Below are positions 11,590 to 11,997 of a stretch of 28,682 bases of DNA, in pieces. Position 1 is the first letter of the stretch. Every line of letters starts with the position of its first letter. The notes beneath the pieces were generated by a model. That model did not search any database. It saw only the letters and a list, made by a program, of their open reading frames with translations, and was not told the origin of the DNA. The translations under genes were made by a program, and so were the position numbers. The stretch is from an uncultured Verrucomicrobiota bacterium (GTDB taxonomy: Bacteria; Verrucomicrobiota; Kiritimatiellia; CAYTQP01; CAZOLK01), in the NCBI GenBank assembly GCA_964580325.1, contig CAZOLK010000051.1:1-28682 (forward strand). The letters run 5' to 3'.

Positions 11590-11618
11590 TTCACTATACG
11601 TCTATTTGATATAATTGC

Positions 11619-11750
11619 AAGCCTTCCGATCAGCATTTTGGCCAGGCTGATGGGCTTGCACATATAGTCTTGCATACCCGCGGCCATGCCTTGCTTGCGG
11701 CTCTCTTCCAACGCATCCGCAGTCATGGCGAGATATATGGCGGGTTCGCA
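11619..11750 (-). pseudogene. Remnant of a receiver-domain gene (only the C-terminal beta4-alpha4-beta5-alpha5 part) upstream of cheR
   Basis: The translation PAIYLAMTADALEESRKQGMAAGMQDYMCKPISLAKMLIGRL is the C-terminal half of a CheY-like receiver. No phospho-acceptor Asp or DD pocket is encoded upstream in any frame. The upstream part of the listed ORF (TTG start) is the 31-bp repeat element rather than coding sequence. Confidence 0.5.
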
Positions 11751-11821
11751 GGCGCCGTAAGTTGGTGGCCCTTTGGACCGACGAGATGGCAACGTGATTA
11801 AGGAGAGCATTTCCAATTTTA

Positions 11822-11852
11822 GTGAACGATTACGGGCGACAATTACGGCCAA
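11822..11852. repeat. 31-bp element, left copy of an inverted repeat pair (partner at 21731-21761)
   Basis: GTGAACGATTACGGGCGACAATTACGGCCAA is the reverse complement of 21731-21761 with one mismatch. It contains an internal direct repeat CCGTAAT(T/C)GT x2. Confidence 0.85.
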
Positions 11853-11947
11853 TTAAATAAATAACCTTTTCGTTCTTTTTTTATCATGCTAAAACCAAAG
11901 GATCATATGGAAGTTGTCATCATATGTTTTGGGAATAAGCGGATGTG

Positions 11948-11997
11948 AGAGGCTGAAAATCCTTGTGTCCCCAGTTCGATTCTGGGTCTCGCCACCA
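11948..11997 (+). other. tRNA-Phe-like 3' partial (anticodon loop to CCA) with no matching 5' half; possible att-site remnant
   Basis: The anticodon loop is CTGAAAA (U33, GAA, A37), the variable loop is GUGUC, the T-arm is CCCAG-TTCGATT-CTGGG and the acceptor 3' strand is TCTCGCC-A-CCA. No complementary 5' acceptor strand (GGCGAGA) and no D-arm occur upstream. It sits in an AT-rich stretch. Confidence 0.45.

Follow-up and report, generated by a model that had tools for sequence, protein, structure and literature searches.

How did the 3' part of a tRNA-Phe gene, with no 5' half, come to lie between a truncated receiver gene and an intact galK in an uncultured Verrucomicrobiota bacterium? The region concerned (11589-11997) is part of a stretch of 28,682 nt, and the whole of that stretch is referred to here as the window. 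The left part of the window encodes a chemosensory (che) cluster and the right part galK, sugar-catabolism genes and an encapsulin operon, and the two parts meet at this region.

Genomic context and composition

The window is organized as follows.

About 440 to 1, minus strand: partial cheB, running off the left contig end
694-2670, minus strand: four-CheW-domain protein (Pfam CheW)
2725-4677, minus strand: MCP gene
5047-10183, plus strand: NtrC-like activator, REC-Hpt, CheW-REC, HK and REC-HK genes
10229-10741, minus strand: 170-aa ORF with no assigned family, paired with cheR
10738-11568, minus strand: cheR, intact, 276 aa (Pfam CheR, E 2e-49), directly downstream of the receiver remnant
11589-11997: region under study, from the receiver remnant to the tRNA-Phe fragment
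11589-11792 (core 11634-11732), minus strand: receiver remnant comprising beta4, alpha4, beta5 and alpha5 (Pfam, phmmer)
11822-11852, plus strand: left arm of a 31-nt inverted repeat (repeat search, 97% complementary)
11853-11947, no strand: AT-rich spacer, GC about 30%
11948-11997, plus strand: tRNA-Phe(GAA) 3' fragment (alignment, Infernal, metagenome matches)
12043-13218, plus strand: galK, intact, 390 aa (Pfam GalKase_gal_bdg, GHMP_kinases_N and GHMP_kinases_C)
13349-19477, minus strand: 3-oxo-tetronate kinase, class II aldolase, racemase-like, DUF6899 and GH2 genes
About 19478-20267: low-GC gap
20268-21056, minus strand: encapsulin (Linocin_M18)
21083-21475, minus strand: EncB-type cargo
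21731-21761, minus strand: right arm of the 31-nt inverted repeat, intergenic, upstream of the EncB-type cargo and encapsulin operon
21807-21820, plus strand: partial third copy of the repeat, corresponding to its first 14 nt (12/14 match) and facing the right arm across 45 nt
21993 onward: DUF5696/GH129-like protein, dual-specificity phosphatase, beta-helix protein and others

The galK start (12043 or 12046) is 45-48 nt past the end of the tRNA-Phe fragment and on the same strand, and a sigma-70-like promoter match is present on the minus strand ahead of cheR (11620-11593). Neither GC3 nor tetranucleotide usage shifts at the cheR-galK junction; GC3 is 0.68 in cheR and 0.69 in galK, and the tetranucleotide correlation across the junction is 0.61, the top value among the five segments compared. 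Integrase (PF00589), transposase and phage families have no match in any sizeable ORF of the window.

The nearest homologues of the flanking genes are distant. Protein searches give, besides self, a best identity of 45% for CheR and 56% for GalK, and the GalK homologues that are 53-56% identical have named sources that include Aminicenantes, Verrucomicrobiota, Kiritimatiellae, Lentisphaerae and Acidobacteriota. A GalK scan of one genome per GTDB species recovers nothing close (best matches, 26% identity), and tblastn with the window proteins identifies no relatives among the fetched loci, including those that carry an exact 30-mer of the tRNA fragment. The neighbourhoods of the distant GalK homologues all differ from that in the window, and a che cluster is present in none of them.

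Several other features of the window merit description. The four-CheW protein is 658 aa long with no other domain (Pfam CheW in four stretches, E 4e-109), and its gene is placed between the MCP gene and the contig-end cheB. A 22-mer, AACACGCCCTATCTCGCACATG, is present twice as a perfect tandem duplication at 4827-4870, in the intergenic DNA from which the MCP gene and that for the NtrC-like sigma-54 activator diverge, and may be a regulatory site. The cheR gene is translationally coupled to that of a 170-175-aa protein which has no Pfam, PHROG or NCBIfam match, and the pair is kept at about 40-45% identity in distant metagenome contigs (L003, 9840-11358; L004, 4283-5798), where it lies outside che clusters and is preceded by a conserved 53-54-aa ORF that is absent from the window. 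The CheR contexts of L003-L006 were considered as a guide to the ancestral state and dropped; their 53-aa ORF is unrelated to the receiver remnant.

To the right of galK, the low-GC gap between the GH2 and encapsulin genes spans about 790 nt with a GC content of about 0.47-0.50. It contains two ORFs (GC3 0.52-0.55) without a family match and a 24-nt inverted repeat (19919-19942 and 20012-20035) that is 96% complementary with a 69-nt loop. The encapsulin gene and that of its EncB-family ferritin-like cargo (20268-21475, minus strand) adjoin the sugar-catabolism genes. The longest cargo ORF begins with a GTG at 21637 and carries an N-terminal extension, which is probably not real; a true start near 21475-21490 is more likely.

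An end fragment of tRNA-Phe

A first-pass annotation of this DNA described about 50 nt of tRNA-Phe sequence upstream of galK, running from the anticodon loop to the CCA with no 5' half, and alignment bears this out. Positions 11953-11997 correspond to tRNA-Phe(GAA) positions 32-76, CCA included, with 45/45 identities in a local alignment to one metagenome gene, and span the anticodon loop, the 3' anticodon stem, the variable loop, the T arm, the 3' acceptor strand, the discriminator and the CCA. The five bases that precede them (11948-11952, AGAGG) equate to tRNA-Phe positions 26-30 if A31 is deleted, and 5' of 11948 the local alignment shows no similarity to tRNA-Phe. The sequence is an end fragment of a tRNA gene and not an internal piece; the complete cloverleaf, with its 5' acceptor strand and D arm, is absent. 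It is intergenic, lying between the receiver remnant and the galK start, and overlaps no conserved protein domain. There are no substitutions in the fragment and the T stem is fully paired, and the fragment is therefore either recent or maintained.

A search for a tRNA gene, a check proposed at the outset, returns no complete tRNA. ARAGORN reports 0 tRNA genes in the window, Rfam gives no match in the window at the gathering threshold, and Infernal, in a search started at 11949, yields solely a tRNA alignment that is truncated at its 5' end (19.6 bits and E 0.029 over model positions 27-71). The tRNA-Phe 5' half is not present anywhere in the window within 3 mismatches, and there are no further tRNA-Phe-like pieces elsewhere in it; likewise, the 11.9 kb 5' of the fragment, up to the point at which the contig ends inside cheB, contain no intact tRNA-Phe or second copy of the core.

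The 30-mer at 11965-11994 has 101 exact matches in JGI/ENA metagenome stretches. ARAGORN analysis of the first 60 of these 101 places 58 of the 60 inside intact tRNA-Phe(GAA) genes, and the same intact 5' half lies upstream in all of the fetched 30-mer loci except L017, L065 and the degenerate L078. Some of these tRNA-Phe genes, L014, L015 and L040 among them, also share the anticodon stem-loop with the fragment. Searches with the 30-mer give no match in viral contigs, and in plasmids match only tRNA-Phe genes.

Within the receiver remnant, on its non-coding strand, we note the sequence GGCGAGATA (11727-11735), which is identical to the first 9 nt of the matching tRNA-Phe genes; the acceptor strand complementary to it lies about 250 nt downstream. 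Chance probably accounts for this 9-mer (roughly 0.08, allowing any 9-mer of the missing 5' part).

Two minor explanations can be weighed at this point. The T arm, acceptor strand and CCA might have been kept as a processing or regulatory signal in the galK leader, as the lack of substitutions and the orientation shared with galK would allow. However, no Rfam family is matched besides the truncated tRNA matches, the predicted fold is no better than that of shuffled sequence (z = 0.06), and no acceptor-strand partner lies nearby save the probably fortuitous 9-mer at 11727-11735, and such a functional element is the least credible of the explanations considered. The second is a chimeric or mis-joined metagenome contig, with the half tRNA and the half receiver as products of the join. 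The window is the entire MAG contig, and tRNA sequences are common between genomes, as the 101 exact 30-mer matches illustrate, but joining through a shared tRNA would yield a whole tRNA rather than half of one, and both codon-position GC and tetranucleotide usage match across the junction. Moreover, the last k-mers used by common metagenome assemblers are longer than the 45-nt identity block. We consider an assembly artefact very unlikely.

A receiver-domain remnant upstream of cheR

The minus strand upstream of cheR encodes part of a receiver domain. Pfam Response_reg matches 11634-11732 over profile positions 74-106 of 111 alone (E 0.025), and the 126 hits that a phmmer search against 1.8 billion representatives returns at E<=1e-3 (lowest E, 1.2e-9) all cover the beta4-alpha4-beta5 part. 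The strongest of them are HisKA-HATPase_c-REC hybrid kinases containing between three and five receiver domains, and many of the hits match at the C-terminus of the protein. The remnant resembles the C-terminal receivers of hybrid histidine kinases (PF00072) in having the PxIxxTA motif of beta4 and the KP of beta5, but differs from them in having no beta1-beta3, no acidic pocket and no Asp, and in reaching cheR without a stop. The full (beta-alpha)5 fold of PF00072 is not present and, lacking beta1-beta3 and the region of the phospho-acceptor Asp, the remnant cannot act as a receiver. It had been described as the C-terminal half of a receiver gene whose N-terminal half is absent in every frame. 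The truncation is genuine, and no minus-strand frame in 11780-12300 encodes the N-terminal half, but what is left is rather the C-terminal 40-45% of the domain.

The remnant ORF extends from 11852 to 11442 on the minus strand (reading ...PAIYLAMTADALEESRKQGMAAGMQDYMCKPISLAKML...) and its frame remains open for 127 nt inside cheR, and a stop codon that is reached only there fits a decaying pseudogene. The remnant was also compared with the other receiver domains of the window and rejected as a copy of any of them (<=26% identity). Since the contig breaks off within cheB, the absence of cheA from the window gives no grounds for identifying the lost gene as cheA.

With both neighbours truncated and each keeping the part farther from the junction, a local deletion has to be considered. 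A second, dispensable tRNA-Phe upstream of galK would have lost its 5' part with no integrative element involved, either in one deletion or in an insertion followed by a deletion, and the event would also have taken the N-terminal bulk of the neighbouring hybrid kinase or receiver gene. The lack of an integrase, an intact tRNA or a compositional break agrees with such an event, as does a receiver frame without a stop codon, of the kind expected of a decaying pseudogene. However, the stumps are not fused. The intervening DNA, about 155 nt long, is unrelated to either and includes a repeated 31-mer, and a single deletion is therefore not enough. A boundary at the anticodon loop would also have to be a coincidence, with odds of roughly 1 in 10 if the endpoint is placed at random within the 76 nt of the gene, and the 45 nt that are left show no decay. 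Local deletion or decay is thus a possible but doubtful account, about half as likely as integration at the tRNA gene, which is discussed below.

Spacer and left repeat arm

The DNA between the two stumps consists largely of the left arm of the 31-nt inverted repeat, which follows the receiver remnant on the plus strand, and the spacer. An AT-rich stretch had been reported after the receiver piece, and the spacer (11853-11948) is indeed 30% GC over 95 nt, compared with 0.51-0.59 in the flanking 400-nt windows. There are no promoter- or terminator-like matches within it. No stable structure is seen in the spacer or the leader, and a structured RNA at this position was rejected on the basis of the fold z-score (0.06 for 11853-12045). 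The left arm holds tandem 10-mers, ACGATTACGG-GCG-ACAATTACGG, at 11826-11848, which lie 105-127 nt 5' of the point at which tRNA identity begins.

Proposed integration at a tRNA-Phe gene

When an element integrates into a tRNA gene, DNA of the element rebuilds the gene and the original end fragment is moved to the element's far end. The reading that we favour, and to which we give an even chance, is that the 45-50 nt upstream of galK are such a displaced 3' tRNA-Phe fragment and represent the attR-type end of an element whose integration was catalysed by a tyrosine recombinase. The element would have brought in, on its attP, a copy of the tRNA segment that runs from the anticodon stem-loop to the 3' end. 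Strand exchange in the anticodon loop would have restored a working tRNA-Phe at the element's far end, and the 3' part of the original tRNA would have been left stranded beside galK, its native neighbour on the downstream side. The P arm would then be the sequence immediately 5' of the fragment, with the 95-nt AT-rich spacer and the tandem 10-mers at 11826-11848, and the body of the element would extend leftwards through cheR and the chemosensory cluster as distal cargo. Integrases are usually found at the tRNA-proximal end of an island, here off the contig, and both the intact tRNA-Phe and the integrase gene would lie beyond the contig's left end. The receiver remnant could be what is left of a gene that decayed at the element's distal end or that a later deletion cut there.

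Displaced 3' tDNA fragments are known at the ends of tyrosine-integrase islands and prophages (PMC4383910; Williams 2002, PMC100330, as cited there). Among the islands in the Islander collection, 3760 of 3919 have a 3' fragment and 2083 of 3919 are centred on the anticodon (class A sites), and its configuration filter places the intact tRNA upstream of a 3' fragment, with both pointing the same way (PMC4383910). The segment present here, from the anticodon stem-loop to the CCA, had been taken for the part of a tRNA that is duplicated at island boundaries, and it does fall in the commonest displaced class (2083/3919; PMC4383910). Its 5' boundary coincides with a known crossover sublocation, with identity starting at C32, or at A26 with one base deleted. 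As in Islander-type fragments, the sequence begins at the anticodon stem-loop, continues through the CCA, is intergenic and is followed on its 3' side by ordinary chromosomal genes. It differs from the Islander signature in that this contig has no cognate intact tRNA upstream and no integrase in between, and in that a chemosensory cluster of host-like composition occupies the 5' side of the fragment.

A similar relationship is seen in two of the metagenome loci. L017 (2745-2774) and L065 (6039-6068) each have a tRNA-Phe 3' fragment that contains the 30-mer and gives no tRNA call, and the independent fragment in L017 starts at A31/C32, as does that in the window. From the fragment through 1.35 kb of 3' DNA the two are 98.7% identical, whereas 5' of the fragment they are unrelated, and they are probably two states of one tRNA-Phe integration site. 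In L017, the unrelated 5' DNA carries an AAA_14/DUF4143 ATPase gene, and direct repeats are present in it close to the fragment.

Known systems offer further points of comparison. In Enterobacteriaceae, tRNA-Phe (pheV/pheU) is a hot spot for islands; the same tRNA would be the target here and a duplicated 3' segment would likewise mark the distal island end, but the window belongs to an unrelated uncultured lineage and has no visible P4-type integrase. In lambda-type attP and attR sites the arm-type integrase sites are short repeats, separated from the core by AT-rich, bendable DNA. The tandem 10-mers, 105-127 nt from the presumed crossover with 30% GC DNA between, resemble this layout, although their 13-nt period is unusual and the 31-mer recurs 9.9 kb away without a core. 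This second occurrence, which has no tRNA sequence, weakens the case for the repeats as arm sites.

Other observations also count against integration. There is no integrase or other mobile-element family in any sizeable ORF of the window, and no intact tRNA-Phe or second core in the 11.9 kb 5' of the fragment. The uniform composition across the junction (GC3 and tetranucleotide values given above) means that the che side does not look foreign. Without a compositional break or a visible integrase, the event is either old or derived from a close relative, or there was no element. In its favour, an unsubstituted end fragment with a perfect T stem, located between genes, is bounded where tRNA crossovers are most common, and the comparison of L017 with L065 provides an instance in which the 3' side is conserved and the 5' side is not.

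The geometry of the fragment also bears on the side on which any element lies. A 3' fragment sits downstream of the intact tRNA in the same orientation, and any island would therefore be at lower coordinates, on the che side; galK and the genes beyond it are then presumed to be the native downstream flank of the tRNA-Phe locus.

A 31-nt inverted repeat around galK and the encapsulin operon

A more puzzling feature is the inverted repeat to which the left arm belongs. The arms at 11822-11852 and 21731-21761 are complementary at 30 of 31 positions and enclose 9.9 kb, each contains two tandem ACGATTACGG boxes 13 nt apart, and a pattern search finds 2 matches where 0 are expected. The repeat is far beyond chance. 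Viral contigs, plasmids and the 112 fetched loci all lack a match to it.

The first-pass annotation had suggested an integration, excision or deletion scar involving tRNA-Phe, with a possible island at 11.8-21.8 kb, an interval that evidently derives from these arms. The general idea of a scar is supported, but the specific island is not, since it is on the wrong side for a 3' fragment, as judged both from the Islander configuration and from L017 and L065. Its contents are galK, the 3-oxo-tetronate kinase, aldolase, GH2, encapsulin and EncB-type cargo genes with no mobile-element gene, GC3 and tetranucleotide usage are flat across the junction, and there is no target-site duplication. One could nevertheless propose that the 9.9 kb from galK to the encapsulin operon is an inserted or invertible island with the tRNA half as its left boundary, given that so non-random a repeat brackets exactly this segment and that the left arm falls between the receiver remnant and the spacer. 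Besides the configuration and the uniform composition, several observations argue against this. The sequences flanking the arms, CCAATTTTA and CGGGTGTTC, provide no target-site duplication; transposase, integrase and invertase genes are absent both inside and beside the segment; the right arm lacks a tRNA-like core; the DNA beyond that arm does not supply the receiver's N-terminal part; and inverting the segment on paper restores neither broken gene. We regard this explanation as unlikely. A search at the right arm for the missing halves of the receiver and the tRNA did not find them.

Terminal inverted repeats are the sole transposon hallmark of 11822-21761, where no transposase or recombinase is encoded and the ORFs are metabolic, encapsulin-related or without a family match. 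The arms could still be recombination sites for a recombinase encoded elsewhere, the 9.9-kb cassette having been moved or inverted with the half tRNA and half receiver as by-products, which we think somewhat less probable again than an inserted island. Each arm has the same orientation as the gene that follows it (galK at one end, the encapsulin cargo gene at the other) and precedes that gene by about 190-240 nt. With this placement, a shared operator, or a repeat found in intergenic DNA throughout the genome, is just as plausible as a role as integrase arm sites. Inspection by eye reveals no convincing sigma-54 promoters downstream of either arm.

Implications

Genomic scars of this kind are well known, and the junction is an unremarkable example from a lineage that has otherwise not been studied; it carries little weight beyond the annotation of this MAG. 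The 31-nt inverted repeat is the sole feature here with the potential to lead to something new; if its arms do act as recombination sites, the segment would be a recombinase-less cargo cassette for sugar catabolism and an encapsulin, of a kind not yet described. More generally, the orientation of a tRNA stump tells on which side an island would lie. For the locus itself, the fragment marks the native tRNA-Phe locus and points to a possible integrated element that carries the chemosensory cluster on its left. Such an element would have consequences for binning and pangenome analysis, and for any judgement on horizontal acquisition of the cluster.
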